Assembly: GCA_002633005.1 (NCBI GenBank) | Contig: NMRA01000026.1 | Location: forward strand, 977,934-1,039,213 | Direction of reading: 5' to 3' | Source of the DNA: Phoronis australis | Taxonomy: Eukaryota; Animalia; Phoronida | DNA: 61,280 nt | In this document: positions 18,901 through 50,825 of the stretch, piece by piece | How positions within the stretch are numbered: position 1 is the first letter of the stretch | Layout: every line of letters starts with the position of its first letter | The notes under the pieces: generated by a model | The model's database searches: none | What the model was told of the DNA's origin: nothing | Seen by the model: only the letters and a program-made list of their open reading frames with translations | Position numbers and translations under genes: made by a program

Positions 18901-21900
18901 AAAATATGGCTTCACATGGTGGGTGGCCTCAGGTAGAGCCTTCACACTTGCTCTAGTGTTTGGAGCAGAGTGTCAATAAAGGGGAATGTTACCATTTTGA
19001 AGGCATTTTTGACCGATTTGGTATATTTTACTTACTCTGAAAGGTATTTTGAACCTTTTTATACCTGATTCTTATTCTTCAAAGCAGAAGTTGTGAGCAA
19101 ATTGTAAAATTCATAGACTATTTTATTAAGTTCATTATCTATTATGGCATCATTGCTCAAGTCGAACGGCAAATGTGCTGGGACTGGTACTGAAAATCTA
19201 TCGATATCGCGGCCATTGAGCACAGTTGTGCAAATTTCTTCTCTACAAGTGTTTGGGTCTTTAAAGTAATTGCAACTGGGCTGTTGTTAATGTTTGTCGT
19301 CTTATTTCCAGTTGGGATGAGTGGGTGCCAGAGAACAGGATACTCAAGTTTAACGAGCAGGGTCTGCAGAAACAGAAAGAGCTGAAGCAAGCACATCTGT
19401 GAGTAAAGGTTTATGTAAACAGCATTATGTTGTTTGGTCAGATGACAGGTGGGACATCTGATCAGCTGTCTGAAGAATCTCACACCTGAATGCTCACCAC
19501 TTGTCTAATTTACCCTTTTATGTATTTTGATGTTCATCTCCATACAGCTAACTGGCTGGGTATAGGTACTGCTCTTATGGGGTTCCCATTTTACTAGGGT
19601 ACATTTGTCTAGTAAGGCTCTGAGTATGCTTGCAAATTACTTGCCTTCACATGTGTGATTTTAGATTGTGTGGTCTTGCGCGATCTCACTTTTCTCGCAG
19701 TAACTTGATGTTCTATGGAACACTACCCAGGTTCCTTCAAATGCTGGGTTTCTTTGTTATCTGACCAAATGTTTTGACGATCTGCATTTCAGTGCGTCAA
19801 AAAAGAAGGCAAAGAAGGACCGAGAAAAGGAGAAGGAAGAAAGGGAGAAAGAAAAGGCACAAGCGACGACATCTGGTGACAAACAGGATAAATCAAAGTC
19901 AAAGGAGAAAGGTTTGTATTAACATGAAGGTGAGATGGAGCACAGCCTGAGCTTGTATGTAAATGAAGATGCGAGGACTTCACACAGTGATCTCAAGCAA
20001 ACTAGATCAAAATCTAAATCCGTTTCTTTTATTGTTCATTCAGTATACTAATAAATACTGGCAAATAGTTTTTCAAGTTGGGTTGGATTCTGAAGGCTGT
20101 AGACCCTACACTCTTGACAACTTTCAGACTGCTTTTTGCAACCACTACCCTGATGGCATTCCACATTTCTTTTCAATGGACTATTTCATAGATTGTGGGC
20201 TGCTAAACTGAATCGGTCAATAGCCTTGTCCGGAAATCAAGTGGCAACGGCACTACTCGCTGTTTAGCCACAATGCTTCATTTCTGTTAGTCACTGTTTC
20301 TGCCTCGTTTCTGTTGTTAACTCAACGCCGGTTATTGCTCATTTCCAAGATGACAGATTTTTGCTCTCGCTTACTGCTCGTGCATGTGTGTTTGTTTTGT
20401 GATATTCTGTGTGTACAGTAAAATTTCGCCAATTTTGGAAAAAATAACTGCCTAAATTTCCATTCTTTCATTTTTCAATGGACTCTAGCTCTGTAGTTGT
20501 ATATGTATACAGTTTTGCAAAATACTGTCTCCTGGTAGCTCTGGTACAGAATTTGAACACGGGAAAGCATTCATTTGGGGATGCATAGCTTTCAAGAAAA
20601 CACACAAGAAATGAAATTTCACTTAATTATTGTTTCTCAAATTGATGAGATTTTACTGTGTTTCTTAGTTCATCAGCTTACTTCAGTCTGTGCTTGTTAT
20701 CCAGTCTTTTATACTGTCCATGCTTTTCATTCCTCATCTTCGTCCTCGCTGAACCGGCACCAGTCATCTGCGGCCTCGCTGACCTGGCATCGGGCCGGCT
20801 ACATTAAGGTGCTTGTGCTGATTTTCTAGCTGGTCGCGAAACGCAGCCTGTTGAACCGGAAGAAGTTGTCCCCCCTGTGACTGAAGTGCGGGATCGTGCT
20901 GCGAGGCGGTCTAACAAAGGTGAAACTTGATATGTCTGTAATCGCCAGATGCCTTGTGCTTGGTTGTCACTGCTCTTCTGCAGTCTATATCTAAGAATGA
21001 CCTGGCTTCAGTTCTCATTATGAAATCTTGATTGAGAAGTGATTATCTGCCATTGAGTCAGATGGTAACTATAGAAAGTGTGGTAGAACTTCTATCTTTC
21101 AATAACAACTTATTCATCTGGAACAGTGAATTTCATCTAGAGTGACTGCCGTACAGCTCCCTCTCACAAAATTCCTAAGGTTTCACTTTAATTTAAACGT
21201 TCATCCTCAGCTTACTGACCACCCTGCCCCGTGTCGTTGTGAACATTTGCCTCACTCAAATTTTATCTCCCATAATGTACAAAACTTGCTTTGAAAAACA
21301 AAAATGGAGTCTCGTTTTACACCTATGCTGCTATTTTTCCCTTCAACGTCTCCGAAATTTTGTTTTTAAGCGCCCATGCTTGCTATAACGATCACTAGTA
21401 AGTCCTGATTTTTAGTTTCCCAATTTGTGTGTCCTGGGAGTTATCCCAGGCGAGAACAGTCTCACATCAGGGCACATTAACACAACGTTTCAGTGGCGAT
21501 TCTTGTTCTGGTTTCATTTTGTTTTTACTGAAGAACTAATTCAAGTATTGGATAAGAGTTAACTCTTCTCGTTATTCATGACCACATTATGTCCGTGTGG
21601 ACCTTAAGTGGCTCCTTTTGGTGTTTTACGCCATTCAAAACTTTTGTTTTCTTATATACAGAAGTGTCATGTATCTTGTTCTCTGAAAGCATCCTCACCT
21701 CAATGTTCCCATTCATTACATTATTACCAGAATACAAAGCCTAATTTTTTAACAATGATCTTTCAATGTCAGAATTTTAGAGCTTTACATTGCTTAACAC
21801 GAGTCCTGCATGCTGCTCAGTATAGATTGTTTTGTGGTCCATCTCTATGCTTTGTCATCATCCCTGAATGTCCACTTAGCTTGTGTTCCTCCATTTCTGT

Positions 21901-24900
21901 CTGCAGGTGTGGTGGCAGAGAAGGAGGCGGAGCCTGCTGCCAAGAAGAAGAGGACTCGTGCTGATGCCACTGTTGAGCAGGTAAGCTGTGATTGGCCTCA
22001 GCAATATTGTGGAGTTGTGTGTCGGGTCGATTTATTTTGTGGTCGTATATGCGTAAGTTGTCGATTAAGCAATTTTTATGAACCTGAAGGCTCAAAACAC
22101 CTTTATCATTTTTTTCAGTCTAGGTCAGAAGCGTCTAACTTTGGCGATGTTCTCGTCAGTGGAGAGTTCAAATAACTAAAATTCGTTTGTGATTTTCTCA
22201 TCAGTGGAGAGTTCTAAAAATTGGTTAGCATATTTGAAAGTGTGTATGTCTGCACTGACGGTTCTTTGTATAATGCTAGTAAGAGTTTGTACAATCATTG
22301 AAGTTGTGCCACTCATTGATAACTGTCTCCACATGCTTAACAAATGACTCATCTTCAAAGTGGTCAAATTCGTCCAAAATGAACACACGGAAATCCTAAC
22401 TGGTTGCCACAATAAATCATAAGAGGTCTTGGAGAACACAGTTTGGAGTTACGCCTATCACTGTAGAATTAACTTCAACTTGTTTTTTTCTTGTCTTTGC
22501 TATAAGTTAGTGTTTTATTCTTTAGAACTCGACTCCATAATTTGGCTTGACAAGGCTACTATGCGTCTGTAAATCCGGTGTATGGAATACTCTGCAACTT
22601 GTCTCTGATTTGAAAATCTTTCGATTACTGTCACTTACAGGCTTTTGTTCGACCTGTAGGTGCTGCCATTTTGAATGCAGATTACTTGGCTCTGAACATA
22701 CAGAGATTTCTGTTTTAGGAAGAAACATTTATCAACAGATTAGAGGTGAGAATCAAACTGCCAGATGACCTCAAGCCCTGGCTAGTGGATGACTGGGACT
22801 TGGTCACTCGTCAAAAGCAGGTAGTGTATACAAACGTGTGTTTCACTACCTTAAAAGTCCTTTCTATGGACCTGCAGATCACATTGTAATGTTCATTTTT
22901 GTCCATGTTTTCTTTTGCTTGCCTGTTGATTATCATTGCAAGCCACTTTGTGACTCTTGATGACTCATGATATTTGACACCTGTCCAGCTTTTGTAACAG
23001 GTTGTCACCTGCTGAGGTTTGAAGCTGTGTTGCTATTGCAGCACCTCCTTTGGGGATGAACCAACACTATTTGATGTTCACAGTATTTAAGTCTTGAAAA
23101 GGTTGTCCCATTGGTTGATTGCTTTCAAAGTGGCTTCAGTTATTTCAATGAACATTGAAACAGATGGAGAGGGCCTGACTCGAGTTAATTTTCAGACCAA
23201 CTCGACCATATTAACATACTGGAGTCATTATTTCCATTCACATTTTCTTCTCTGTGCATCATTTTACAAACATCACCACATAATTTTATGAAATTGTTAT
23301 TTGCTGGAAGGAAGAGTACCTTCAGTGTTTTAGCCCATTTTGACATTCTTGGAATTCCTGCGATGGGAGGTCATTCTAGTTTCAGCTTCAAGTTCGTTCG
23401 TCTCAGTGATTTCCAAACGCAAATTTTGTGCCCGTGGGGACCATGGTAGGAGTAAGCTCTTTACGCTACCACATGTATGATTTACGCTCTCGTGTTTCAG
23501 CTTTCAACTGAAGTGTGTCACATGTTCCCGACATACCTCCACATCAGTGGTTAGAGTGCCGGACTCGCATTGGTGAGATCCCGGCTTTGATTTCTATCTC
23601 GAGACAGGCATTTTTTTTCAAATTGGCAAGACAGTAAAGCCTAAGGGCTGTTCCAGTAAAATCTGTATGGGAAGGGGGGAAGGCACCTTTTTTTCGCACC
23701 CACCACCCATATTTTTCATTTATTTCTTCAGCCTACCACCCGTAATTTTTTATATAAGTTTGAAATGCAACCACCCGTAATTTTTTTTTGTTCTTGTGGT
23801 TGACTGCACAGGCGCTTGAGTTTATCTGTTCCTCCATCACTCTAACGTCATTCATTACTAAGAAAACATGTTTCTTATATATGGTTATTAACCATCAAGA
23901 AATTCGAGCACCTGTGGTTAAATGGTGTTATGGGCATGCCGATGAGGAGATCGGAGGGAGTGAAAAAGTCGGAGCTTTTTGCAAGTTGCATTTTTGTTTC
24001 AGTCTTTGATTCTGTGCGGATTGTTTATAAAATTTACTAAAATTACCCACCATCAAACATTTATGGCCCAATGAAACAACAACGACCTGTAAATTTTTAT
24101 TTTTTTGAAGTACGACCACCAGCCATTTTGAATTTAAATCAAACGCAACCACCCATAATTTTTTATTTCAGTTGCCTTCCCCCCCTCCCACACAGATTTT
24201 GCTGGAACAGCCCTAATATTAAATTGAATGAAATACTAATTGTGAATGAGTTTTCAACCATTGTCTTAAATTTGTACATTGTCTTTCAGCTGGTGAATGT
24301 TCCTTGCAAGAAGACAGTTGATGATATTCTGGATGAATATGTCAAACAAAGGCTAGCTAAAGACAAACACATAAACAGGTATTTCCATCTGGGAAGCTTT
24401 GTTTTACAAACTGCTCAAAACAGTTGAGTATCATTCTTTACCACGATAATTAAAAATTCGGTGACCATTTTGCAATATGAGATCTTTTTATTCACCAGGT
24501 GGCGCTAGCGAATAAAGGTTCATGTTTTTAAAACATAAATAAATTGATACAGCATAAAAGAATCTGTTATCCTGAAAGTCTCATGTGACCATCTGAATGC
24601 ATTCATTTCAATTTACTCTTAGGACTAGCCACACGCGTGCCATTTAATATATTTAAAGGTGCCCAAGCAATGGATGAGATTCTATTTCTGAACTACTAGA
24701 TTGCTGAGAAGGATTACAACGTAACTTACTTAGACGTCCTACTGTCAATTTCTCTAGTAGCGTATTGAGGCAGTTCTTCTTCAGCGTTCCCGGCCATATA
24801 GTGTAGATGGTCAGTCTGGTCTTCTGGGCAGTTTGTGGTTTGCCACAATGATGCTGTCGGGCCACACAGTTTTACGTTGAGTTCCACTGAACTGGGCCAT

Positions 24901-27900
24901 GTTTGGCACCTTATTAAGGCAGAAATTGATTATTAATCGAATTCTGTTTTTTGAGAAAGAGGCTGTGCAGTTAACTTTCTTTGTAGTCGTAACATGCTGT
25001 CAACTTTTGTTTCCATTTCAACTATCCATTCTTGTTGTTTTATTTACCGATTTATATTCTTCATTTCTTGAATCCATTCTTGTTGTTTTATTTACCGATT
25101 TATAACTATTTTTGCCAAATTCAGATACCACTAACAGTTAGTAATTGGTTCGACAATAAACCCGACAGCTTGTGAAAGATTTGTTTTATTACCTCCATCA
25201 CTGGTTAATTTCATGTGTTCCAGAGATGCCCTTTTGGAAGTAAGCCAGGGTATCCGCGAATACTTCAATGTCATGTTGGGAACTCAACTGCTATACAAGT
25301 TTGAACGGCCACAGTACTCAGAAGTAAGTTGTCCACCTAATGGTAAAACCCACAGCGTAAGTGCGTGGGTGTTATCCCTCTGCAACTGCTGATTTGATGG
25401 GCCTGGTATATATCTTAGCCAAAACATTCGGCTCACCAAGCTGGTCATTAAGCTGCGTTAGAGGCAAGTCTTGCTGTTGGGTAAAAATAAAGTCCTACAT
25501 AGAGACATAATTGAGTGCTACTGGTAGATTTTGAAGTCTGTGAGGTTTGGTAGGGATGTGCTCCGATCTCCTACGCTTATTCTCTATTGTCATGTGTTGG
25601 GGGATGTTATTCTGAATTCCTGTTATAGTCTCAAGTGGGCCAATGGAAGACGTGGCGATGGGCCAGGGCTTTGATTGGTGGGGACGAATTAGGAATTAGC
25701 GACCCATTTTGTGGGAGAGAATCCACCAGGGTCCAGTTTCATGAAAGTTATAGGCCGCATACCAACAATGACGTTGCATTATCATGTGCCAAATTGTTAT
25801 TGTTGAACAATGCACCTGACGTCATGCAACAATCAATAAGTTTTATGCAACCCATCCCTGGTTCACGGGACAATTCAGGATGTAGAAAAAGTTTTAAAAG
25901 TAAAAGTCTATGAATAGGTGTATGCTGTGCTGATGGAAGCCATTTTGAACTTTTGTTTGAATTTTTTTCTGATTGTTGACCGTAAATTTCTGAACTTGTG
26001 TATCCAGAGAATGGTACACATTTTTCACATTCCAGTACCACAAATTAAAGTAATCTTTGTTGTACTTTTTTGAAAATGAGTTATCAATCTGTGGAAAATG
26101 ATTGATATATCGAGCATATTCCAATTTACATTTTAGCCATCTTGTTTTTGCCTAACACACTCGCTGACAATGTTACTGCCTGGAAAGTACATACTATGGA
26201 AGGTGATAGTTTTTGCTCCAAAAACAGTTCCTTTGGCTCATATCAAACATGCACACATTGATTTACATTTACTGAGTATAGTTAGTGAAAATTCTTGGTA
26301 CAGCATAGTTTACAAATATTTATCTGCACGTGTAGCAATAACTTGGGGTTATGCCTCGAATATGTGGAAGACCTCATTGGGTGCCAACTGCCCTGTGAAG
26401 TTGGCTATACATCAATCATTTTGATCTGTCCTCGGCATTTGATAAAATATTCACAAGCTAGATCAAGTTCTATGAGTCTCACTAGAAAAATCTAACCAAA
26501 ATTATGCTCTCATTGAAGATGCACAGCGATGTCTCACAAGATCCTGCTTTTCTATCAAGACACTAAAAATATTGAACTCGACCCGTATTGCATTTTGTGA
26601 AGTTTCAAATGGTGTTAAGAAAAAGTAGTGAATGTAGTCTCAGTATAGTAGGTTAAATGTAAACTACGAAATCAGACACCAATTGTCCTCAACAGGTACT
26701 CAAGGATCACTCTGATACTCCCATGTCCAAGGTCTATGGGGCTACTCATCTTTTACGGCTGTTCGGTAAGAGACGAAAGGTTACTATAGCAACAGTACTG
26801 GTACACAGATATTGTAAAGCTTGTTTAAGTGTTTGCTTCGTTTTCATGTGACAATGGAAACAAACACGTCTAATTCTCAGGTTTATTCGTAATAAGCATT
26901 AATTTTGCGATCGTCAGGGTCTGCACTGGACTTACAATCCGAGAGTTGTTAAGACTAGTTACTTAGTCTGTAACATGTCTCGCAACTTCACCACATAATG
27001 TTTACAACTAGCCAACTTTGAAAACATGACAGGAATGAGCATTCAAAAGACCTACTTGAGCACAAGAGTAACATAATAGAATGATTCAACGCAACTAGAA
27101 TGCATGTTATGTAAATTTACACGAAAACTGGGCTGTGCTTCATCCTATAAGCAACTACCGAAAGTGTCCAATAGATGGCTTACTTCTGGATGCTTGAAAT
27201 GACATTGAAAGTCATAACTTTTTAAAGTTGGAGATTAATCTGACATGTGTCCTTGCTTGTTAAATGACAAGTTGTGCATGTGAGGTCTCCAATATGAATT
27301 AAATCCGATGTGCGTGTATGTGATTATTGAGACTCCTGTAATTTTTTTACTTGTTTTCAAATACATATACGACATCACTTTAGGATGGACAGCAACAGAA
27401 CCCTATTCGAGTGATGTCGAATGGGTGTCAAGTGCACTTACCGTAGATTTCATAAATTTTGGACACACTGATGCACAAGTAAAAGTTCATTTCGTTATCT
27501 TTTCCATGAAAGATACAAATTCACCAAATCAACGCTTTCCCATGTTCAAATTTGGTACCATAGCTACCATCAAATAGTATTTTGAACAGTTATGAGCATT
27601 TACAACTTTAAACGCCCTTGAAATTCAAAAAGGGGCAGTTTTAGCCAATTGTTTTGTCCAAAATTGTCGCGTTTTTTCTGTAGATGTGTTATGATATAGA
27701 CTTTCAACTATGTCTGTTAAATTTCAGTCAAGTTGGGCTCCATGCTGGCGTTCACAACTTTGGAGGAAAAAACAATGCAGCTTCTCATGTCTCACATCAA
27801 TGACTTCTTAAAGTAAGTATGGAGGTCTTATGAAGTTATCTCCCCTGTACAATGTGGTTACATGCAACTGACAGCAAAATGGAACTTTAAATTGGATTTG

Positions 27901-28839: not shown

Positions 28840-30690
28840 AAATTTCATTTAAGTGCTTAATATTCCAGACGCGGCACATAATGTAAGAGCTTTACCATTG
28901 GTTACGTCCCATAGGCACTATACATTAGCTTGCACATGTAGTGAATATTCAATACACTAGCTTGCACAGGTAGTGAATATTCAATACACTAGCTTGCACA
29001 TGTAGTGAATATTCAATACACTAGCTTGCACATGTAGTGAATATTCAATACACTAGCTTGCGCATGCAGTGAATATTCAATACACTAGCTTGCGCATGCA
29101 GTGAATATTCAATACACTAGCTTGCGCATGCAGTGAATATTCAATACACTAGCTTGCGCATGCAGTGAATATTCAATACACTAGCTTGCGCATGCAGTGA
29201 ATATTCAATACACTAGCTTGCACATGTAGTGAATATTCAATACACTAGCTTGCGCATGCAGTGAATATTCAATACACTAGCTTGCGCATGCAGTGAATAT
29301 TCAATACACTAGCTTGCACATGTAGTGAATATTCGTTGAAGTAACAGAAGCTGTGAATTCTGTCCCATAATGCAACATTCCAACCCCACCGCCTATCGCT
29401 TCAGTGACCGCCATTTTGTTATAGCTAGTATGCTTCCAAGAATATTCACGAAAAACACGTCTTTCGTGTGATTTTGCGAGGTCTTTTGGGATCCTGCTTT
29501 TCTTGCAAGAAACATAGCTTATGGAATGCTACGCAGTTCAACTGGCAGAAGAATGGTGGTACAATCGAACTATATTACAATGAACTCTTGTGGGACTTTT
29601 GTGTTCATTTTAAGCAAATCGACTTGGCATGTGTATACTATACATTCATTGTCTTGAGAGCTGCGCAATGGTACATAATTAGCGAGTCAACGTAATACAT
29701 GGGGCAAGTTGCAAGGCAGTATGACAAACAAAGTGTAACATAATTACTTACCTTTAAAAGCCTACACAGTTTATTCCCCAGAAAAGAAACACCAACATTT
29801 GTATAAAAATCTACAGAAATAATACATTACATTTGCTTGCTCTGTAAAATTCCACTGCCAATACAATTTCATGTTAAAATATTGCATTTTGTATATAGTT
29901 ATATAATGGATTATAATTTTTACACTTAATTATATTTTTCAGCAATCCATAGGATCACATGAAATTTTTAATTTCAAGTGTTGTACATTCCAGACACAGC
30001 AAACAGTAAGAGCTTGATCATCGGTTGCATTCCATAGCCGCAATACATTAGCTAGCACATGCAGTGAATATTCGTTGAAGTAACAGAAGCTGTGAATTGT
30101 GTTTTATAATTTGTGAATTCCATCCCAGAATTCAGCATTCCTACGCCACCGACCTACCACTTCAGTGGCTGCCATTTTGTTATAGACTAGTAAGCTTCCA
30201 AGCATATTCACCAAAAACTAATTTTGCGAGGTCTTCCAGAATCCTCCTTTTTTGCAAAAAATGTAACCTACGGAATGCTACACAGTTCAACAGACAAAAG
30301 AATGGTGGTATAGTCAAACTATTTACACTGAACTCTTGCGGGACTTTTCTGAAACAGAAGTTCACTTTAAGCAAATCAACTTGACACGTGTACAGTACAT
30401 TCATTGTATTGAGAGCTGTTACAGTAGATAATTAGCAAGTCAACGTAATACATGGGGCAAGTTGCAAGGCAGTATGACAAACAAAGTGTGACATAATTGC
30501 CTTTAAAAGCCTGCACAGTTTATTGCCAAGAAAACTAACACCAACATTTGTATAAAAATCTACAAAAATAATACATTACATTTGCTTGCCCAGTAAAATT
30601 CCGTTGCCAATATAATTTCATATTAAAATATCGCATTATGCGAAAACAATATTTACACTTAATTATATTTTTCTGTAATGCATACGATCA
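28840..30690. repeat. Tandem segmental duplication (about 28840-29960 and 29960-30690)
   Basis: Colinear shared blocks such as attccagac..taagagctt, gtgaatattcgttgaagtaacagaagctgtgaatt and gtcaacgtaatacatggggcaagttgcaaggcagtatgacaaacaaagtgt. Confidence 0.9.
28921..29334. repeat. 32-bp minisatellite (about 13 copies) just 3' of MORF4L1
   Basis: Unit tagcttgc(a/g)catg(t/c)agtgaatattcaatacac. Confidence 0.95.
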
Positions 30691-31919
30691 CAATACAAAT
30701 TAAATACAACTGGTTCTGGTCTGTTTCTTTCATTAACATTGTAGTGATGCAGCATTCTTTATTAGTTGTCCATACTATCAAAAAGAAAGTCGATAACGCT
30801 CTTGCGTGACCTGGGTCCTGCAATTTGAGAACAAGTTTTCAGTCCACTTAATAACGGCATCAAACAGGCTCTCAAAATCCAGGACCCTTGTATGTGACTT
30901 GACAGAAAATTGCCCGATGCAGACAGATGAAATGGGTCAGGATCCCTTTTTCTCTAGCATCACTTGATTACAGCTAAAACTTTCTTTTTTACTCATAGTG
31001 TCAACTGATGCCATCTAAAATTAGTTAAGATCCTTTGCATCACCCAGCACTGCGCGATTCCACATGAGGAACAGGTTTCACAGTGGGTTGGGTGCAGACC
31101 AGAGTCAATTAATACTGTACTTTTTTAGCCTTGCATATCAAATTTAATATCCCATTCCACATTTCAGTTCCTGCATTATATGTAATGCCACAACAAAATT
31201 AATACAGCTGGTTTCATTACATATTAATATTCAATTGGATGTGCAAGAATGCCGTAGTTTCAAAAAAGATGACATGTGCTAGTTAATTACCCAGATTTTC
31301 TGTAGATAAGCCCACCCAATGAAACGCCCGTGTGTTTATGTGGAAAATCATGCTGAATAAACACCCACGAGTGTTTCTTTGGAGTTACAACTTTTGGGGC
31401 CTGTTCCATGCAAATGTTGTTTTGAGACCTTCCGTCATGCTAGAGAGATTAAGTTACCTGAAACAGTATCAACCAATTCAGTCAAAACAATTTTAATGAA
31501 ACACTCATTTCCATTTTTAAGATGCCAAAGAGTTGATGATTTTGGGCATCTTAAGCTCGACAGTAAATTGGCTAATTTCCTTTATATAGTCATTCAAGTT
31601 TGATAGCAGCCATTTTGAATTAGGAGTTGCCATCATAGCAATACATTTTAAAAGGAGGAAAACCATATTTCTCAAGTGAATGGTGCTCTCATGTGCCGAT
31701 TAGCCTTTAGCTTTTAAAAAATTTCCTTTTTCTAATCATGAATCTTTCATTTAATGGTGGCCATCAGCAATGTATTTTCATTGAATGGTAACCATCTTGG
31801 AAACATGGCCACAATTACGTAACGCAGACACTGTGTAATTTTTGATTAATTTTAGTTTTTATGTTACTTGTAAAATATTTCAGAAAAAAATAACAATTAC
31901 AAAAATGACAAATCCCTAC

Positions 31920-34075
31920 TTAAGGGCTCATTTTTTTAACGGAAAATTCCGGTACCATTTCACGATGTACAACCATAGGAGCTCCATCCACTCCAATTAT
32001 CTCTAGTGACAATTCTTCTTGAAAGAATTGTTTCAAATTACTCATGATCCTACTCGTCAATCTCTCATTGTTTAAGACTAAGCCAGAGAGACCAGGTTTA
32101 TCGAGCGGATACAATTCTTCCACCAATCTCAACACCTGCCCAACCAACTTATGCTTCTGGTGTTCTGGCAGCTGTCTGATTACATCAGAGACCGTAGCCC
32201 TCTTAAAGCTTCCAGCTAATGCACCAACAGCGACACCAACAGCTGCTGCGACTGGCAATGCTGATGCGGAAAGCGTGACGCCACCTACTGTGGCTGCAGC
32301 CGTAATCATTGATGATCCCCAGGACACCGATGCTCCTGTGGCCACCACTCCAGACAAAGAGCCAATGGCAGCTCCTGAAACGAAAATAAACACAAATTTA
32401 CTATCGTTGGCGTGGTAGAAATATGGTGCCCAAACCCCTCTGTTCATTGGAAAAAAGGCCTCCTGCTGGGCTGAAATTCATTACACTATAATAATTGCTC
32501 CCTCCACCAGCTCAATGCAAAGTGGCCCCCAGCCTGCCACTCATTTCAATCCCCAGGGTGGCCAACAACCTCTCCAGTAATGCAAGTCTGTTTTCAGACT
32601 TTGTCGATACAAAACATAGCGTCAGATATTTTGAAAATACCATGAGCACCAAAACTGCCCATGTCACAATCCTCTGAATTGAGTAAACACAAAAAGATGC
32701 TCATTGCTTCAATTAAATCATTTTAAATGCATCTAAATTTTATCTCAGCAAGACTTTTTTTGGAATTGGAAAGCATTGTTTGAAAAACTGAAACAAGAGC
32801 CTGGAGATTGAGTTGCAATGTGATTCCTCCAACCTACGATTTTGTCAGGTAATAATTTTGTAACAGACAGTACAAGCCAAAAGTATTTGCCAAAACAACC
32901 CAGAATTCCCCCATCACGACAGCCAGATTCATCTTCCCTCATGATTAGGAATAACGAGGAATTAACAGAAAACTTAAGGTGGCCAAGACATTCTGTGTTG
33001 TGAAATTTGCCACAATGGTTTTTCCAGTCATTTTTGCTGGTGATATTGACAAATTTCAGTGAACCTTGACTCATGTATGTGACAGTAATGCGCCATCGTA
33101 AGTTAATTTTCTGCAACACCCCTCCAGGGGCCATTTTAGTCTCAATGAGGGTGTTTTCATCAGCTGCACTTTAGGGGACAAGTGCCAACTGACAGATTTC
33201 AATGACACTTGACACAGAGGTAGCGTGACAACAGTATGTCGGCACCTGTCGTATTTTCGGGTGGATTTGACAAAAGCAGCACAACCTAGTGGTTGTTCCA
33301 TTTTATAGATAGCAGCTTTTTAGTTTTGAGTATATTCCAACAAGTGCTGCATCCATTATGTCATTTTGTGTCTATCCTTGTTCCTGCCAATCCTTGTGAT
33401 TGTTCTTAATAAAAAGTAGACTGGACCTGCTAATTTTGGGAAGCCTAGTGCTGTGTTTTATTTCTTTTTGCAAATGTTGAAAACTTTTCAATATTTTTAA
33501 GCTTTTTGACATGATGTTAGCAATGAGGTTTGGCAGACACAAGGATAGACACGGCAAAATGACAATGAGCACAGCACATATCAACCCCTTTAATGCTTAT
33601 CTTTTGTAGTTTTTCCACATAACCACCGGCGCTAATAAATGAGATAAACTCTTGCCCCGTTTTTTCTGCGCACTAGCTCAAAGCACACCTGATGCAAAAC
33701 AATATGAATGACACAAACAGCTTTTATAGTGGTGACTATGTATATTTCTGGGTTTCATTTAAATGATAAAAATAATGTAGAAAGTGTACAGCTGTTTCGT
33801 CCATATCTCACAGACTTGATTCACCACCCAGTGTGCCCTCTGTCGTTGTAAATTAAAACAATAAAAACAGTACATAGCTGTAGTTCCTTTACTATGGAAG
33901 ACATGTGATTAAGACCAACCCTTACCAAGAAATCCTCCAACTGCTGCTGCAACACCACCAGCTCTGACAGCCGCATTTTTGTTAAATCCAGTCACCGTCA
34001 TTCCATGGGTAAGACTGTCAAGAATATCCAGGATTATACTGTCCTGCTTTGAGCTGACGGGAGACACTTCTGCGA
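31920..34075 (-). CDS. C19orf12 (MPAN/Nazo)-like domain, last two exons
   Basis: IILDILDSLT..MTVT..NAAVRAGGVAAAVGGFLGAAIG...AVGVAVGALAGSFKRATVSDVIRQLPEHQKHKLVGQVLRLVEELYPLDKPGLSGLVLNNERLTSRIMSNLKQFFQEELSLEI parallels the C19orf12 pattern (GGAVGGLLGAWM..QFKPVPQILMELP..EQQRL...LTALVM.SEALQQQLL.MLVNYVTKELRAEI). Confidence 0.85.
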
Positions 34076-37000
34076 CTGTAAAAAACTGTTTCAAATGACA
34101 AAAATGGGAGGCAGCAGCGCATTCTTACCAATAAATACAACTGACTACAAGAACAATCGTGATACAAGTTGCCAGCATGGAGGAACCCCAGACTGTCCAA
34201 ACAGAGTACACCCCAAACTATTCTGACAAAATGACGGAGAATTCCGTGTCACAATAGCTGGGTGCAAGCGGAATTCAAGGTCAGAGTTAAACCTTCCTAA
34301 GAATGAAAAAGAATTGACAAAAAAGTTGATACAGTGGCTAAAACCATTCTGGAAATAAAATTTTCATGCACCATATCGGTCTTTTTTGCTAGTTGTTAAC
34401 AGAATTCTTCATCATGATGGGTAAACTGAATAATTGTTGATCACACAACATTGTTCGCAATTAAAAATATTCAAAGGCATTTGCCTGAGATCTGTATCTT
34501 TGACAGTTGTTCGCAGCACAGCAATGAGTGCAGACGGCCATGAGACATAAGAAAACTAATGATTAAAACGACAACTATGTTTGGATACTGTTCTTGTCTC
34601 ATAATCAGGCATAAATAAAATGACACGGGATGGGTCTATGTGACACACGGTACCAACTTAAGACGCAAGCCAATAGCAATGCTGAAAACACACAGATACT
34701 AGGAAAGCAGAGGGACGCTGTGTCATTTTTTTGCTGATATGTCTCTTGGCCAACTGCTTTTATTATTGTGCTGCAAATTTATGTCAAATATACAAAGAGA
34801 GCTTGAGCAAATATTGGAATTAAATTTAATTTTAATTATTAATCGTTGAATGTTGTGTGTTAACAGATTTTGTCTACACATTAGCACTGGTGCCGAATTA
34901 TTCTAGTTTACTGAAAATTTAGAAAATGAAACTGTCATCATTGTAGACCTACCCAATGCGACCTCAGAACGTTTTTGGCGACTTGGGAAAAATTCCAAGT
35001 CACCACAAAGTCGACGTGCGAGAACCTAGTAAGTTAGAAAATAATTCCCTCTAAATTCGTCTCAAAGATTGTGTTGACTTCCAAACTTAAATTTAATACT
35101 TTTCCTAGATTTACTACCTTTCAGTCACAATTGTTCCGTTTATTTTGTGAAATCAATCCATTTGTCATCACGCTTAAAGTACAACAGGAAGTAAACAGAA
35201 AGAAGTTGGAATTGTTTTGGGCAAAAATCGCACATCTGTGAAATTCACACCAGTCCATGAACAGTGACTTAAGGCCGTATTCAAGAGCCACCACACACCA
35301 TGACAATTCCGGAAAACTTAATACTGAGCAAAGTCACTCAATAGAAAAGCTAGCATGATCACGTACTTCGCTTTCTGTGTGAGGCAATGTCTGACTTAAT
35401 TGCGTGATACGCATTTTGCAAATTTCTTGCGTATACAGAACGCAGCCTTGCATGGTCAATTTAAAACTGATGTCTTGGGAAGAACTGACGTACATGTCAT
35501 TGCTGAAGACTTCTCACTCAAAAAGTTTGCACATTAGGAAATTGTTTGAAGTGATGCGGCATAAAAATGAACAGAGTCGTACAATTATAAAAATAATATG
35601 TGTTGTTATACATCAACGTGTTGACATCGTTAAGTAAGAATTATCTGCCTATTACACGAGCTATGTTGGTCACATCACATGACCTAAAGTGAAGTCTGAA
35701 AAGATTTTTGCCTTGACTGGGATTTGACCAACAGAGTGCATGTATAAGACTGATAATTCTTACCCAATAAACAGAATTGGTAAACCAACAACTTTTAAAA
35801 GCATCAGTCATATACATGCACTTTGTTGGTCAAATCATGTGACCTAAAGTTTAAGTCTGAAAAGACTAGTGTCCAACCGGCACAACTTAACAATTATATG
35901 GACGTCCAAGTTCGGAAGAGATGCCGCCTGTCACGTAAGTCTCTTTGGACTTCTGTATTCCACGGGTGGTCCAAACATTAATAGCTCAGAGGAATGGACC
36001 GTCTGCATGGTTAGCATAAGGTACTGGGCTCGAATCCCTGTCAAGGCAAAAATCTTTTCTGACTTAACTTAAGGTCACGTGATGTGACCAACATAGTTCG
36101 TGTAATAGACGAATAATTCTTACTTAACGATGTCAACACGTTGATGTGTAACAACACATATAATTATACAGCTCTGTTCGTTTTTATGCCGCATCACTTC
36201 AAAAGTGCATCCAGACAAATTTACTTACATCTCCTATGGAGGATTCCAACAAGTTCCCTGCCAATGTCGGAGAATTTTTTTGTTTGTTTGACTGTAAGAA
36301 TATGTTACAAATGAAAGTACTTCATGTCAGTTGACCAGTGAATCTTGAATAACTCAAGAGTTGTAAAGAAACTTTAGCACAATGCAAATAGCACCTGACA
36401 AATTTCAGAAATCCATCAGGGGAAGTTGGTGAAATGTTGTGAAAACTCATTAACACGTAGTCACTGGGAAATTTTGAATAACTCGAGAATAGTAAGTCAT
36501 AGCGAGAAGAATGGATGGAACATTTCCAAACATCAAAAAAAGGTCTCCAAAGACACTCAGCAGAGCCAAGGCCACACACACCAAAAACTTGGCAGCCAAA
36601 GTGCCATCTTGCATCTAATATCAGTACAAGGAATAGGCATTGACCTATTATAGACACACGCTTTGTGTGAATTTCATGTTGACATGTAGCAAACAGAAAA
36701 TGATGAAAACACACTTGGGGCTGTTCCAGCAAAATCTGTATGGGAGGGGGAAGGCACTTTTATTCAGTCGTACCCACCGCCCATATTTTTCATTTATTTC
36801 TCCAATCCATGACCCATAATTTTTTAATTATTTTTAATAGGTTAAAATATAAAATCCAACACTTGCAAACAAATTGCCTCCAGGAGGACCTGTTAAGAAC
36901 TTAGATGATTGACAGACAAGAACTAGTTGTCTTGTCCAATATTGTCAAAAACTAAAAGTAGCCTGTGTGCAATACTTTTGGCAGCCACCAGGTGTCTCTG

Positions 37001-40000
37001 TTCACCATGTGTCTATAATTTCAATGAACATTTTTTCAATTATAAGGATCTATGAATCTCAAACTGTCTCCACGAACTCTTTTATACTTCTATGTCAAGT
37101 TAATATTGGAACTTGTTTATCTTACTCCTCATACTTTTTATTTAAAAATCATCAATTTTCTTATATGTGTTAACACTAGTTTAGTGTTGCAGAACTTTTC
37201 AATTCAATAGGACTGCAGACAAACAGTTGGCTCAAATCAAGTTGCCCATGACTTGATTAATGGCTTAGTGAACATATTGCACTCTGTTCACTGGCAATAT
37301 GGGATTTTTGTTTTGGGATAAGTTAGAATATATGCCAGTTGCATTTTTTTTTGAGTTTTCACAGCTGAAGTAACCAACCTGTCAACATTAACAGGTCAAA
37401 AAATACCACCCATTTTTAATACATCACTTCTTACAGGAACGACCACCCATAATTTGAGTTTTTTTCTGAAGACCACCACCCATGAATTTTTATTTCTACT
37501 GCCGTCCCCCCCTCCCACACGGATTTTACTGGAACAGCCCTTGGCAAATTTCACTTCAGGCAATAAGAACAGAGTCATCTAACCAGAAAATCTTGACTGC
37601 TTCGTGAATGTCAAGTCAAAGAAATAGAAATGAGCTGGCACAATTGGAAATAGTTATAGGTGAGATTTATCTCCATGATGCTGTGGTATGGCACAAAACC
37701 ATCAAATAAAAGTATTAGTAGCCATTGGAAGATCTCATCTAACTAGAGATTTAAATCAGAGATTACTCTTGAAGAGATCTATCTGCGTACCAAACTACAA
37801 AAAATCCTCCCAGAGAGAGCAGAGCTAACGGTTTGGCAAACCAATAAATGGCTGCCCTAACACCACTTTGTGTCCAATTTCAACCAAAAACAGTAGTCTT
37901 CGAGCTGTACATTATGAGTGATTTCCTGTTAATTGGATAAGAAATGTAGCTTGTAGTGCGCATACAAACAAAAAGAAATTGATGAAAAATCAACAAACTA
38001 AAAATTACAACAGGAACTAATATATTAATTGATTACAGTTCATTAGTCTGTGAGCTACTTTCCATTGATAGTGTTCTCATCAAACTGGAAAATTTGGGAC
38101 TCTTAGTTGAATTCCTCAGGCTGAATGAATTCTGTTCATGCACATCTGCTAGGAAATTCAACAGAGGAAATATTGGACTTCCCAAATTCAAGAATTACGA
38201 GAAAGGCAACAAAATTAGCGATTTATGAGAATTTGGGACTACCATGATGCATTACTTGCTCAAGCCGTGTTTCTAGGTCAAGTAATTATCTCCAAATGAA
38301 GGTAAACAAACGATATTACACACTATGGGACACATTAAAACGTTTCAACCGTGGTTACTTTGGACTCTTTTGCAGACGTATGATACAAATATGGCCACGA
38401 ACGCCAAAATCGCCCATGTCCCAATCTTCAGAACTCATAAAATCTAAATTTGACTTGAATTTCGGTGTCTCAAATAATACTGACCATCAAACAGAAGAAC
38501 TTTAATCACAAACACCTTTTATGATGTCGTGTAAAGGACTAAAAGAAAACTGTTAAGTCAAGGCGTAAATTTAAAAAATGATCACGTCAGACTGTGGAGG
38601 GTAAGATGAGAGAAAAAAAAATGTTGAAAATGGACCAATAATTGTAGGTAGCTATGTGTACACTGACTATGATTCACTATGATTGCATGAAATGTTATTC
38701 AAATCCCAATAAAAATATCTTTAATCGGCATTTCTCTAAAAAAATCAGCAACTTAAGTTTAATTAATTCAGATAAACATCAATTCTAAATAGTTGTAAAG
38801 ATTAGTCTCGACTCATACCATACCCAGATTAAATTTAAAAGAATTGATAAATTGTGGTTCCCGAAGCCCTCCATGATCCAATCAAAAACGTTGGAATCCG
38901 CGCACTACAAATGCTGTTTTCAGTCTACTGCGCAACAGGCTGGTTATAAAAAGATTTGTCAGAATTTTCACTCATACTTAGAGTCTCAATGTTTTTCATA
39001 AGCAGATTTTGTAAAGTAAATAAGATATTTTGTAATCAGATCAAAAATCGCTTACATTAAGAGTGCCAATTATGCAAGAACTCACTTGGATCACTGATGG
39101 CCTCAACTTTTAGTTTGACTGGAGCTCCGTCGGCAAGCTTTAACACATCATCTGTCAGGAGTATCTCCTTCAACTCCTCGGTCAATACGCCATCTTGAAC
39201 TTTCTCCTTAAGTTCTTTGATAGCTTTTGGATTGTCCGACACTACAACAATCTCTATGCTTCCTCTTTTGACTTTGAACAGCTTCAGCACATAATTAGAT
39301 GAACGAGAGAGAAGACCATACGCCCACCCAACAACAGTTGTGTATAGCCTGGAGAGCACTGAGGGTTTCCTCAAGTTTTGAAGAATTTTCGCCTCCATAG
39401 CATCTCTTTCATCATTAGTCACACCATCTAGATGAACTTTAATGGTAACACTCTCTGTCAGTTGACCCTTATCAGGGAGATCAATGACAACTGAAAAATA
39501 CAAGACAGCCAACAATCGGTTTCAGCAGAATATCAGGCACATTCTCTTCTCAAAAACATTACAGAATCACCCGAAGTTCCCCTCCTCAGGCACAAAACTT
39601 CCTCTTGAATGGCAAACAACAATCACATTTAACTCACACAGACCCTTCATACACGAACATTCCAGCCTCCAGTGCACCATAGGCTTCGCAAAAGCCAAAA
39701 ATNNNNNNNNNNNNNNNNNNNNNNNNNNNNNNNNNNNNNNNNNNNNNNNNNNNNNNNNNNNNNNNNNNNNNNNNNNNNNNNNNNNNNNNNNNNNNNNNNN
39801 NNNNNNNNNNNNNNNNNNNNNNNNNNNNNNNNNNNNNNNNNNNNNNNAAATATAGGGGGGGGGGGGTGGTCACCCAGCCTAAAATATAGGGGGGGCTCGA
39901 ATTTCTTAGTATGTGGATCTTTTACTGAAAAAAGAAAAAGAGGTCTGGACTAAAAAAAGGGTTACGAAGTTCATGCCTATGAATTGTGCATTTGTGACAA

Positions 40001-40976
40001 ATTCCCGTGGCCTTTGTCTCGTTTTCTTGAACTTTTTGTTTCTCTGGTGTAGACCTTTTTGCCCACTATGCCAAATGCAACCTGCCCCCCTCCCCCTGTA
40101 CATCAAGTTGACTATAGCCCGACAGGTGTATATAGGTTCACTGGTGCGCATTTATTACAAACTAATACAAGCACAGTTTATGCAGACAGTTAGAACACAA
40201 TTGTGTCACCATTGCCCAGTACAGGGATATCAACATGGAATTTAAATTAAAAAAGAATTATTGTGACGAGAGAACCAATCTGTGCCTTAGTTGTGACAGT
40301 TAGTCTTCCTTGCTCAATTACCCCGTATTATTTCTCTGACCAATCATGAGCTACAACAGATCGGAGTCATCAAGTCTCTGCTAAGGTACAAGTCTAGCAG
40401 ACTTTCGGTATCTGGAGGTTTATTAAATGGGAAAATATGCTCAGCAGAGCGTACTGCCTCGACGAGGAGGTCAAAATTCGATACCCCTACCACCAAGGCT
40501 GCATGGCCAATTCACTACAAAAACCTATCAGACCTCTCCTTTATGTAACAAGCTGGATCTGCCTTTGAGAGGCTACAGTTTTACATGGGGCGATTCATCT
40601 GATAAAGTGGTTAAAGGTCCGTAGCATGGAAATATAGGAAAGACAAAGGAAATAACAACACTTATGACGATAATTAAAATTAACCCAAAGATGTATGGTC
40701 ATATCCTTCGCATTCATACCCACCTTCCTCTACTATGTTAGTTCCTGCAGGATGAACATACACGTCAAAATGAAGGTGCTGCTCCTGAATCAACATAACA
40801 TTTTCATTTCCCACTTGAGCATGACGAACACCTTGCATTCTAACAAGTCCACCAACAGACATCTCTGAGCGTGGTTGTCTAGTTCTTCTATAATCTGTAG
40901 GGACCGGCTGAACTGCTCTGGGGTCCACGGCATAAGTCACACTGGCCATTTCTGATGCCATTGCTGGACAAAGCAT
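31920..40976 (-). CDS. Predicted 433-aa RHIM-like motif + TRADD-N-like domain + C19orf12/Nazo-like protein; exons 40976-40685, 39490-39086, 34075-33926, 32374-31920
   Basis: Donors G|GTTAAT, A|GTGAGT and G|GTAAGG; acceptors tatttttcag|TT, ttttttacag|TC and tttcgtttcag|GA. All are phase 1 and total 1302 nt with no internal stop. An in-frame TAG immediately precedes the first ATG. An N-gap (39703-39847) lies in the first coding intron. Confidence 0.7.
35543..36204. mobile_element. Inverted pair of tRNA-derived SINE copies (35543-35730 minus, truncated; about 35980-36204 plus)
   Basis: The plus copy has an A-box-like tagctcagagg and a B-box-like ggctcgaatcc. Its body (gtcaaggcaaaaatcttt...ttatgccgcatcacttcaaa) is reverse-complemented at 35543-35730. 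Confidence 0.75.
36718..37540. mobile_element. PIF/Harbinger-type MITE with TTG target-site duplication
   Basis: Same TIR as 23645-24213 (gggctgttccag...ctggaacagccc), TTG on both sides, different internal sequence. Confidence 0.88.
39086..39490 (-). CDS. TRADD-N-like alpha/beta domain exon (symmetric phase 1-1)
   Basis: LKLFKVKRGSIEIVVVSDNPKAIKELKEKVQDGVLTEELKEILLTDDVL...VKLKVE has the strand-GS-strand-helix-G-L-helix-strand pattern of invertebrate TRADD-like N-terminal domains. Confidence 0.65.
39703..39847. other. Assembly gap (N run)
   Basis: Run of n characters. Confidence 1.
40788..40847 (-). other. RHIM-like amyloid motif LVRMQGVRH-AQVG-NENVMLI
   Basis: Fits the RHIM pattern hydrophobic strand + xQ[IV]GxxNx[ML]x[I]; compare RIPK3 VQVGDNNYL and RIPK1 IQIGAYNYM. 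The first core residue is A rather than I/V. Confidence 0.65.
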
Positions 40977-41940: not shown

Positions 41941-43521
41941 TGTAACATGATGAGCTCATATTTCTAGACAATAACCCTCGGGTTTTTCTAACGATGCTTT
42001 ATTAAGCAAGACGAATGTCCGTCTGAAACATACAAAATGAATATACAAATACTGTGAATTGAACTCTCTATAAACAACGAATGATAACTAATAATAACGG
42101 CTAATACACGTATGCGCCAGAAAATAGACAAACAAAAGAACTCATCAGCACTTACCTGGTTTTGTGTAGAAATGTACTGCGCAAACGTGAGGACGCCTTA
42201 ATAGCTGGCGTGACATGAGAGCGCAATCGCGTGTCACGTAAACTATTCTCTACCTCCCCCCTAAGTTCCTTACAAACGTTAGCACAGGTACGTTTGTTGG
42301 AACTGATCTTAAAATGTTATGTCTCAAAGTCATTGAGCCACGTAGGGCGTTTCCGAACTCTCGTGGATCGTCTTGGCAACATCTCTCGCTCTGGTGATGA
42401 TGGTTGCAGTGGTGTTTTGGCTTGAGGTTCTGTTGCAGATGGAGTTTCTTGTATGCATGGAGGCATTGGTGATGTGGGAGGCGATGGTGTTTCCTTAATC
42501 TTGTTTCGTGGGAGTGGTGATGATGGCACTGGATCTGAAGCTTGTCGATGTTCATTGGGATGTGGATCACGCGGTATGTCATCAAGTATGGTGTGGCGGC
42601 GTTCAGAGGTCTGTATGGGTATGAACATTCGCAGGAATTTTCGGTTGCGGATGGTTAACCTGCTAGAGCCGTCTACACGAATGACGTACTGGTCAAATTG
42701 ACGAACCTCGATGATTGTTCCAGTTTTGTCCCATTTGTTTGGATGATTTCCTGTTTGGTTTTGGATTCTGACTTTATCCCCTACTTTTAGTTGTGGAAGA
42801 CGTCTTGTATGCTCTGTCCAGCGTTCAGCATCAAGGATATGTCTATTCCGAAGAGCTTCTTCCCTTGCCGCCAATGTTAATCGCCAAGTACGGTGGGGAA
42901 GATAGCGGCCTGGTTGTATGGGTATAAAATCTTTTGTTGGTCGGCCAAAAACGCATTGGGCTGGAGACAGTTTGGTTAAAGGGTCTGGAGCATTCCTGTA
43001 TTGTAGTATCGCTCGTTGAAATGAGTTGTTGTCAAGTGTGCCGTTGGGTCCTGTGTTGTCCATGATTAGGCGTTTGATGGTTTTCACTCCAACCTCTGCC
43101 CGGCAATTGCTGTGTGGGAAGGCTACGGAGGCTAACCTGTGATGGACACCCCATTGTTGAAGAAATGTGCGAGTAGATGTTGCGGTGAATTCAGGGCCAC
43201 CATCAGAGCTTAATTCATCGGCTATGCCATACGTTGAGAATGTTTGTCGGAGGCATGAAATGAGGCCAGTTGCACCATTGGCTGGGCGTTCTACAATTGG
43301 CCAGTTGGAATATCTATCTACAATGACGAGATAATTTATTCCTTTGTAGGTGAAGTAATCAGCACAGATACACTGAAACGGGTATGATGGCTCCATTCGA
43401 GGAGCAGGTGGCGCGCTTGGCTGAGATGGTGCTATACGATTGCAATGTTCGCAGCGATTGCGAATGTGAGTGATATCATTTGTTATACCAGGCCAAAACA
43501 TTGATGATTCTGCCCGAGCTG
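41941..43521 (-). mobile_element. Ty3/Gypsy (Mag-like) LTR retrotransposon 3' end: integrase, PPT and 3' LTR
   Basis: Open pol frame 43521-42317. Minus-strand PPT AGGGGGGAGG at about 42253-42262. Putative LTR about 42250-41941 contains AATAAA and ends in ...TTACA. The 5' part is lost in the gap. Confidence 0.9.
42317..43521 (-). CDS. Retrotransposon integrase (C-terminal pol), 5'-partial
   Basis: FWPGI..C..C zinc-binding part; [16 protein letters not shown] and [11 protein letters not shown] catalytic D,D(35)E motifs; GPY/F-like C-terminal module. Confidence 0.92.
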
Positions 43522-44514: not shown

Positions 44515-44910
44515 AAAATGTGTCGATTATTGGCCATTTGTGTCGCTTTCAGAAACGTTGGGTTGAACAATTTTGCGAGTTCAAAGAAATGTGTATATGA
44601 GTATCGGCGCCGGAGTGCGGAATCACGGTAGCCGTCGGGTCGGAGCCTGGCCAGTGGAAGACAGGGGGCGCACGTCCATACTGGCCAATTGAACACAGGG
44701 GGCGCACGTCCGTACTGGCCAGTTGAAGACAGGGGGCGCACGGGTAAGTTCATTGGCGGAGCGGAGACGGGACTGAGATTTGAGGTTTGCGGACTTTTGT
44801 TACTCCGGGCATGATTAGGAAGTTTCCGCGGGTTTTGGTCGCGAAACGAAATGTGTCGATTTCACCGTCAATAATCGACACATTTTAAAATGCTCGTTTT
44901 CACTATACCC
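44515..44910. mobile_element. Inverted-repeat element with an internal 34-bp tandem repeat (3 copies, 44647-44742)
   Basis: aaatgtgtcgattattg ... caataatcgacacatttt; internal unit ctggccagttgaagacagggggcgcacgtccgta. Confidence 0.55.
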
Positions 44911-49949: not shown

Positions 49950-50825
49950 CAGAGCTGCCAACCGTTCCGTTTTTACGGGACGCGTTCCGTATTTGAGAGG
50001 GAAAATCTGTGTTCCGGGCGCTTTTTGAAAAATCTGTATTTTCAAACTCGAAAAATCCGTATTTTAAAGTCTTTAAAATCATAGAAAATACGCGGCGCAT
50101 TCCAGCGTTATGTTTTCTTTCCCACACTCTAAGGCTTGGAGCTGCGGCGAAATCTAGGTCAAACCACCGAGTACCGCCCTCTTTGAATAATTTAATTGAT
50201 GACTAAGTATGTCTCAAATATTTTATCCAATGAGAATCCAGCATTTACTCATGGCACGTGTTCGTGCTTGTCACTCAAATTCCTATTCTCTGCCAGCTGC
50301 TGTATCAACGATAAAAGGAGGTCAGTTCGCTAAAAAACTTGGAATGGCGCAAGTAGAAATGTTTGATAAAACAGAAATTAAATATAAAAAGCATGAAACG
50401 TGGAAGCAAACAAAAATATTTATTTCATGTTTTTGGGAAATGCTTGCTTTCATTTAAAAAAAAAAGTTTTCTTGCTTTCAAATTTGTGTTTTTTACGCTG
50501 TCTTGCGATAAACGTTTTCTTACAACTGTTGCAAACATGGCTGACGCGGGTGAGGGAGTATGCGACGGGCCCGCAAAAAAGAGGAAACAACGCTTCAAGA
50601 CCATTTATTCGTGCGAGTGGCCGTTCATCAAGGCAGGAAAAGACATGTACAAAGCGTTTTGTACATACTGTGCAAAAGAATTCAGTGTATGTCACGGAGG
50701 TAGATCAGACATTACGCAGCACGTGAAAACAGTTGCCCATCAGAATCGAGTTTCAAGCCATGGCAAGAGTGACATTTCGAAGTTTTTCAAGTCGTCAACT
50801 CAAGAAAGTGATAACTTGTCGACAT
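49950..50825 (+). mobile_element. hAT-superfamily DNA transposon 5' end with start of transposase, truncated at a contig join (n at 50826)
   Basis: Terminal CAGAGCTGCCAAC with subterminal ccgt repeats. ORF from 50537 reads MADAGEG..PAKKRKQRFK..EWPFIK..AFCTYCAKEFSVCHGGRSDITQHVKTVAH, an NLS plus BED/TTF-like zinc finger. Confidence 0.8.

Follow-up and report, generated by a model that had tools for sequence, protein, structure and literature searches.

Can a single animal protein join an amyloid-type signaling motif, an adaptor domain, and a membrane domain? The question is raised by a minus-strand gene at positions 31920 to 40976 of a 61,280-nucleotide stretch of the phoronid Phoronis australis genome (assembly GCA_002633005.1, contig NMRA01000026.1, positions 977,934 to 1,039,213), hereafter the window. 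A sequence-only reading had assembled four of its exons into a 433-amino-acid (aa) protein with a RHIM-like motif, a TRADD-N-like domain, and a C19orf12-like domain, in this order. Here we found that the gene is real, expressed, and spliced on the minus strand, with one exon more than first recognized. Its last exon is supported as a divergent C19orf12 domain by sequence comparison, the TRADD-N-like domain is likely from its modeled fold and motif, and the RHIM of exon 1 is an unproven resemblance.

A spliced and expressed five-exon gene

The gene model was examined with three raw stranded RNA runs (about a fifth of the reads) and one contig set. The exons lie on the minus strand at 40724..40976 (exon 1, aa 1-85), 39086..39490 (exon 2, TRADD-N-like, aa 85-220), 36229..36291 (an extra exon of 63 nucleotides (nt), aa 220-241), 33926..34075 (exon 3, aa 241-291), and 31920..32374 (exon 4, C19orf12-like and carrying the stop codon, aa 291-441). 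The four exons named initially were confirmed, as all their introns are GT..AG and in phase 1 and their join is an open 433-aa frame. What had been missed is the 63-nt exon, which is flanked by AG and GTAAGT, is in phase 1 on both sides (1/1), and keeps the reading frame. The corrected model consists of five exons joined in phase 1 and is 441 aa long (454 aa with the donor at 40685). The reading frame is intact across the 441 codons, and no indels are listed within 33700-36700 in four runs.

The direction of transcription is given by the raw reads, nearly all of which have their first mate on the plus strand in the listed bins with exons 1, 2, and most of exon 4. Their depth is about 8-11x over exon 1, 4-13x over exon 2, and 4-8x over exon 4. 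Exon 3, seen in both reads and a contig, has one-sided reads on the same strand as the other exons. The junction 33926/32374 between exons 3 and 4 was borne out by 20 reads in the three raw runs (5 + 5 + 10). Another proposed junction, 39086/34075, needed correction: the exon-2 donor at 39086 joins 36291 instead, in 1 + 0 + 2 reads and in a contig (depth 35.6) that places 183 letters on one side of the joint and 42 on the other. As this donor is in use, reading on to the TAA as a terminal exon cannot be the sole fate of exon 2. A contig of 188 nt links exon 3 to the 63-nt exon, covering 33930-34080, then 13 loose letters, and then 36250-36273. Of the 13 loose letters, 8 agree with the 63-nt exon's end, and the joined sequence, 3 nt shorter than the model, stays in frame. 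Three contigs of run X1 (39492-39239; 39268-39086 with 36291-36250; and 36273-36250 with exon 3) overlap by 30 nt, with depths of 32-36. The claim of one polypeptide thus holds from the TRADD-N-like through the C19orf12-like part. An isoform skipping the 63-nt exon may also occur.

Exon 1 likely belongs to the same polypeptide as exons 2-4. An upstream coding exon is needed because exon 2 has no methionine before its first strand, a place that exon 1, being expressed, in phase, and open, could fill. Its end had been placed at 40685, but it likely lies at 40724, with 40685 as an in-frame alternative. Indeed, the donor at 40724 (AAG/GTGGGT) agrees with the splice consensus at 8/9 letters vs 5/9 for 40685, and the RNA depth fits it (6-11x vs 2-4x). 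In addition, the alignment of the exon-2 contig extends two letters beyond the acceptor, to 39492, as expected with an upstream exon ending in AG. A polypyrimidine tract and an AG stand directly before the exon-1 ATG, and a further upstream exon is therefore possible.

Among the sequenced animals, the linker (33926-34075 and 36229-36249) is far more variable than exons 2 and 4, as balanced alleles or a paralog would make it. Counting listed sites only, which were chosen by support ranking, 9 of the 11 variable sites of exon 3 are non-synonymous (in 7 codons), vs 4/7 in exon 2 and 2/4 in exon 4. The exon 2 contigs differ from the reference at 3/183 and 5/254 letters, vs 17/151 in exon 3, and reference-like and divergent exon 3 reads co-occur in two runs (2/8 and 4/10 at 33979). 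This strong variation of exon 3 fits an immune gene, but equally a paralog or relaxed selection.

Immediately 3′ of the stop codon, a 1160-nt contig and reads cover 30500-31630, possibly as a 3′ untranslated region or a neighboring transcript. An intronic high-copy element of ~820 nt at 36718-37541 has inverted ends, resembles a miniature inverted-repeat transposable element in appearance, and shows many opposite-strand joints, with an RNA-read depth of hundreds for each strand. Another inverted repeat, smaller in size, is located at about 35690-36070.

The three parts of the predicted protein

Pfam, AlphaFold, and the large protein searches were run exon by exon, not on the spliced protein. 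Exon 4 scored 20.4 bits against Pfam PF20721 (E=4.8e-4), under the gathering score of 30 bits. A phmmer search against 1.84 billion protein representatives returned nine matches, eight of which are C19orf12 proteins (E 3e-5 to 8e-4) that pass PF20721, with lengths of 138-285 aa; no TRADD-N or RHIM Pfam family was found in these eight at E<=0.01. About 110 residues (match at aa 308-416) align nearly gap-free to the family with 24-29% identity. In hhalign, exon 4 reached 98.6% over 110 columns against the family, a value that leans favorable, as the profile was built from this query's own matches. Its family score is 67.8 bits vs a maximum of 7.1 in 1000 shuffles. No homologs of exon 4 were seen in a word-based search, which is weak evidence, or in a scan of metagenome contigs. 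Taken as sequence comparison, these results support the proposed assignment of the last exon to a divergent C19orf12 domain.

The top phmmer match (P0001, a repetitive bacterial protein of 2519 aa) has no C19orf12 match and was dismissed as an artefact of composition. Of the eight family matches, seven are stand-alone proteins of 138-208 aa. The eighth (P0002, XP_076809569.1 of the tunicate Clavelina lepadiformis) is a 285-aa tandem copy with two C19orf12 domains, which shows that family members can exceed one small domain; this match was excluded from alignments A1 and A2.

Like human C19orf12, the protein of the disease MPAN (mitochondrial membrane protein-associated neurodegeneration), and Drosophila Nazo/CG3740 (PF20721), exon 4 has a glycine-zipper hydrophobic region followed by a helical C-terminal domain. 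In this domain, however, which sits fused behind about 290 other residues, the GP turn that all seven stand-alone matches share is replaced. It is a divergent member and not an ordinary small protein of about 140 aa that stands alone. There are two hydrophobic stretches with GxxxG runs, the extra glycine-rich one spanning the exon 3/4 joint; exon 3 contributes an amphipathic stretch and the start of the first glycine-rich hydrophobic segment. The last intron of human C19orf12 lies at c.160/161, in phase 1 within Gly54 (variant c.161-2del; PMC12384588), and the exon 3/4 intron also divides a zipper glycine in phase 1. The arrangement suggests a partial duplication of the C19orf12 hairpin across exons 3/4; exon 3 itself was not significant as a C19orf12 N-terminus (hhalign 2%; 0.8 bits). 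The predicted structure of exon 4 had a predicted local distance difference test (pLDDT) score of 50, and a fold search with this low-confidence model was empty at E<=0.001, including for HeLo/HELL/MLKL-like domains.

Exon 2 is, with high probability, a TRADD-N domain, as had been proposed. The fold itself is common and no single test is decisive; the assignment is likely because the model fold, the Atlas neighbors, and the GS motif are taken together. The single-sequence AlphaFold2 model (pLDDT 76.9) is ferredoxin-like, with four strands and broken helices (E12-21, H25-39, H42-57, E66-73, E77-84, H87-99, H101-110, H113-119, and E125-132). The GS motif (exon-2 residues 76-77; 39263-39258) lies where strand 66-73 turns into strand 77-84, the beta2-beta3 turn, and a uS motif in this turn is described as a conserved feature of the TRADD-N superfamily (PMC8195603). 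In Foldseek, the TRADD-N structure 1f3v_A had the best probability (1.00) and TMq (0.47) among the matches listed. All Atlas neighbors bearing a family were of the TRADD-N type (PF20694), with top scores of 0.91-0.92. A PDB sequence search with exon 2 gave nothing relevant, and no homologs appeared in word-based searches (weak evidence) or in the metagenome contig scan. The 63-nt exon probably provides a linker or the last helix after this domain.

The RHIM-like motif of exon 1, VRMQGVRHAQVGNENVMLI (40788..40844, minus strand, aa 45-63), is named for its sequence resemblance. Its tetrad AQVG lies at 40820-40809 in the context VRMQGVRH-AQVG-NENVMLI. Judged by eye, the flanks are RHIM-like, with alternating hydrophobics before the tetrad and G-x-x-N-x-hydrophobic after it; the extension described for RHIMs is Asn, a variable residue, and an apolar residue after the tetrad (PMC4262963). 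The motif shares with RIPK1, RIPK3, ZBP1, TRIF, and the amphioxus RHIM proteins (PF12721) an x-Q-V-G core, a hydrophobic strand before it, and an Asn and hydrophobic strand after it. As in metazoan RHIM proteins, it also lies in an exon without a recognized folded domain. In contrast to them, it has Ala at tetrad position 1 and no profile match, and the model contains no kinase, Zalpha, TIR, or death domain. A strict motif pattern matches a single site across all six frames of the window and none of 200,000 exon-1 shuffles (loose pattern, 14), a statistic that is overstated, as both patterns were written after the motif was seen. A four-copy complex prediction of the 38-residue motif region scored 0.01 ("no answer") and is evidence neither way. 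Some tolerance of the tetrad is reported for human RIPK3: all tested variants among the natural tetrads LQIG, CQIG, and TQIG supported ZBP1-dependent death, and the TQIG variant lost NF-kB activation (PMC12119088). We consider the chance that exon 1 carries a working amyloid motif, as predicted, slightly better than even.

Weighing the possible functions of the gene

The account that we tentatively prefer, at a little under an even chance, is that the five exons encode a likely single 441-aa RHIM-like/TRADD-N/C19orf12-like product that acts as an immune switch, in which amyloid-type recruitment is predicted to release the membrane domain. The RHIM-like motif would replace the Death-fold module of other TRADD-N proteins and be templated by an upstream RHIM-bearing sensor. 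The TRADD-N domain would hold the flanking parts inactive until the motif is recruited. The freed glycine-zipper region could then insert into endoplasmic reticulum (ER), mitochondrial, or lipid-droplet membranes, where the domain may act as a Nazo-like antiviral or cell-death effector. The gene itself probably arose in its own lineage by domain shuffling, as is typical of the TRADD-N genes of invertebrates.

These roles are drawn from published precedents. As described in PMC8195603, TRADD-N is mostly single and central, with a Death-fold module on one side and a variable effector on the other, and is proposed to keep neighboring domains inactive. The same source links the architectural variety of TRADD-N to retrotransposons, reads the invertebrate expansions as immune genes, and indicates that TRAF MATH domains are not universal TRADD-N partners. 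Binding to the MATH domain of TRAF2 is known for vertebrate TRADD only. Amphioxus RHIMs are reported to occupy positions otherwise taken by CARD-like/Death-fold domains (PMC4262963). Because the gene fits this plan and this placement, the motif is the putative recruiter, TRADD-N the putative latch, and the C19orf12-like domain the putative effector. According to a review, human C19orf12 and the fly proteins are located at the ER, mitochondria, or lipid droplets, C19orf12 and Nazo act in lipid turnover, and Nazo restricts picorna-like viruses in flies downstream of STING-IKKbeta by an unknown mechanism.

Several observations weigh against the immune switch. In the transcript chain, no exon 1/exon 2 joint is among the joints listed (15 of 53). 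The weakest link, between exon 3 and the 63-nt exon, rests on 24 letters (37 with the loose ones) vs a 31-letter bridge rule, and the 188-nt contig that provides it differs from exon 3 at 17/151 letters (11%), so that it could come from a paralog. In the motif, AQVG fits the RHIM consensus (V/I)-Q-(V/I/L/C)-G at three of four positions, Ala at position 1 lying outside it. No Pfam family, including RHIM (PF12721), was found for the whole of exon 1 or for 30- and 54-residue cuts, and neither the PDB (exon 1 and motif) nor the Atlas (exon 1) gave a relevant match. AQVG, AQIG, or AQLG was not found as a RHIM tetrad in the literature, including 12 of the 31 supplementary files of PMC12119088, and no relatives of exon 1 or exon 2 were found by which to gauge motif conservation. 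For the TRADD-N domain, 1f3v_A is only 14th by Foldseek E-value. The VIA search placed TRADD-N 1f2h_A 17th (Z 5.8, root-mean-square deviation 4.0, 95 aligned), with unrelated ferredoxin folds reaching Z 7.1. The Atlas recognition of 2131 is below the 2300 mark, and exon 2 matches no Pfam family at E<=10, including the TRADD-N models PF09034, PF20694, and PF13820. Concerning function, the documented roles of C19orf12 are mainly in lipid metabolism and its multimers are unproven, according to the parts of the literature covered, where no demonstration of C19orf12 pore formation was found either. The window contains two kB-type sites vs 2.28 expected, none of them near the gene. Finally, the weight of the case is limited, as it concerns one locus, no ortholog was found, and TRADD-N genes are known to acquire many partners.

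It is also conceivable, though rather unlikely in our view, that the fusion joins TRADD-N and a C19orf12-like domain only, the N-terminal motif being a chance or decayed RHIM look-alike. The protein would then be a membrane-tethered adaptor or effector working through ordinary contacts, without amyloid. The missing profile support and the non-canonical tetrad agree with this, as do at least 18 "DEDD2+TM" entries in fig4-data1 of PMC8195603, from several marine invertebrates, in which TRADD-N is followed by unnamed transmembrane (TM) segments. A decayed or chance motif, however, accounts less well for flanks that fit RHIM, for a strict pattern that is absent from the shuffles (within the post hoc limits given above), and for a position where TRADD-N proteins have their interaction module.

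That the gene is a young exon-shuffled chimera of low expression, drifting or serving lipid-droplet or organelle-contact biology without an immune role, seems quite unlikely. Its intact 441-codon frame without a listed indel argues for another history, as does a C19orf12 domain so distant from its family that an old gene is indicated, and related TRADD-N expansions are read as immune genes (PMC8195603). Such a chimera would nevertheless explain why no fusion ortholog was found among the 1.84 billion representatives, and it fits the uniform phase 1 of the exons, a nearby integrase, the lipid turnover roles of C19orf12 and Nazo, the absence of kB sites near the gene, and amino-acid change in exon 3 that could reflect relaxed selection. 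Least probable is an incomplete or mixed model, in which exon 1 is internal to a longer protein with an upstream domain or the RNA chain merges the locus with a close paralog: the polypyrimidine tract and AG before the ATG, the 1-kb gap and repeats upstream, and the higher divergence of exon 3 than of exon 2 in RNA would allow it, but both exon 3 types occur within two runs, fitting alleles, the exon order is identical either way, and no candidate coding exon was noticed upstream in the window (frames of >=80 codons; by eye, two scanned).

The surroundings of the gene offer markers for future comparisons. The window has a GC content of 38.6% and contains spliceosomal introns. Pfam identified three neighbors on the left that can serve as synteny markers: DCAF12 propeller exons (1329-4638, plus strand), prenyltransferase alpha-repeat exons (10259-10735, minus strand), and MRG-domain exons (about 21800-25400, plus strand). 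We take the last two to be PTAR1(-like) and MORF4L1. Within the DCAF12 region but on the opposite strand, a 98-codon open stretch (5524-5817, minus strand) reads like a coding exon and has no Pfam match at E<=0.01. On the other side and outside the gene, a retrotransposon-type integrase open reading frame (42320..43495, minus strand; Pfam rve, E=7.9e-11), presumably of the Ty3/gypsy long terminal repeat type, lies 1.3 kb upstream of exon 1 and runs into the 1-kb assembly gap. Past this gap are three GC-rich tandem copies of 34 nt each (44647-44748). A frame at 50357-50818 (plus strand), cut at an N and without a Pfam match, bears a likeness to the zinc-finger N-terminus of DNA transposases.

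Related systems and meaning

The closest plan is that of the invertebrate TRADD-N expansions of the DEDD2/NCOA6 clades (PMC8195603; PF20694, PF13820). Like these proteins, the product has a single TRADD-N-like domain at its center that bears the uS (GS) motif; an interaction module precedes this domain, a variable effector follows it, and a retrotransposon lies near the gene. They differ in the front module, a Death-fold domain there and a RHIM-like motif here. Neither C19orf12 nor RHIM is named as a TRADD-N partner in the main text of PMC8195603 or in 12 of its 13 supplementary files, and some of the "TRADDN-DEDD2+TM" proteins listed there, among them XP_019621996.1, XP_022810296.1, XP_015761223.1, and XP_022107499.1, could harbor a C19orf12-like domain. 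In the literature, no TRADD-N+RHIM, C19orf12+RHIM, or C19orf12+TRADD protein was found by title and start of abstract, most subscription literature being outside this scope. No C19orf12 fusion was found in that literature or among the 1.84 billion protein representatives, where distant fusions could have been missed because ordinary C19orf12 members barely reached significance. The novelty first suggested for the whole architecture is therefore narrower: TRADD-N with swapped effectors is a known marine-invertebrate class (PMC8195603), and what appears undescribed is the RHIM-like head and the use of C19orf12 as effector.

A bolder form of the immune switch would make the protein an animal counterpart of HET-S, in which RHIM-type templating opens the TRADD-N latch and drives the C19orf12 glycine-zipper domain into membranes, where it would act without a kinase as a death or antiviral effector; we regard this as unlikely. 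Fungal HET-S, which combines a HeLo with a prion-forming domain, and bacterial Bell-BASS likewise carry an amyloid-type motif and a membrane-directed domain in one chain, and their templating switches the effector on (PMC13506858), an analogy of working only. Here, the order is reversed, with the motif N-terminal, a TRADD-N-like domain lies between, and no HeLo/MLKL homology was found with the low-confidence model.

From a biological perspective, the molecular action of C19orf12, which is mutated in MPAN, and of Nazo is unknown, according to a review. A natural fusion outside insects, in which the C19orf12 domain takes the effector position of a TRADD-N protein, lends separate support, by context, to the view that this domain acts as an immune effector. 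Should the RHIM-like motif prove functional, a direct amyloid-to-membrane effector of fungal type would exist in animals, and if the HET-S-like reading is true, the C19orf12/Nazo fold itself would be an oligomer-activated immune effector.

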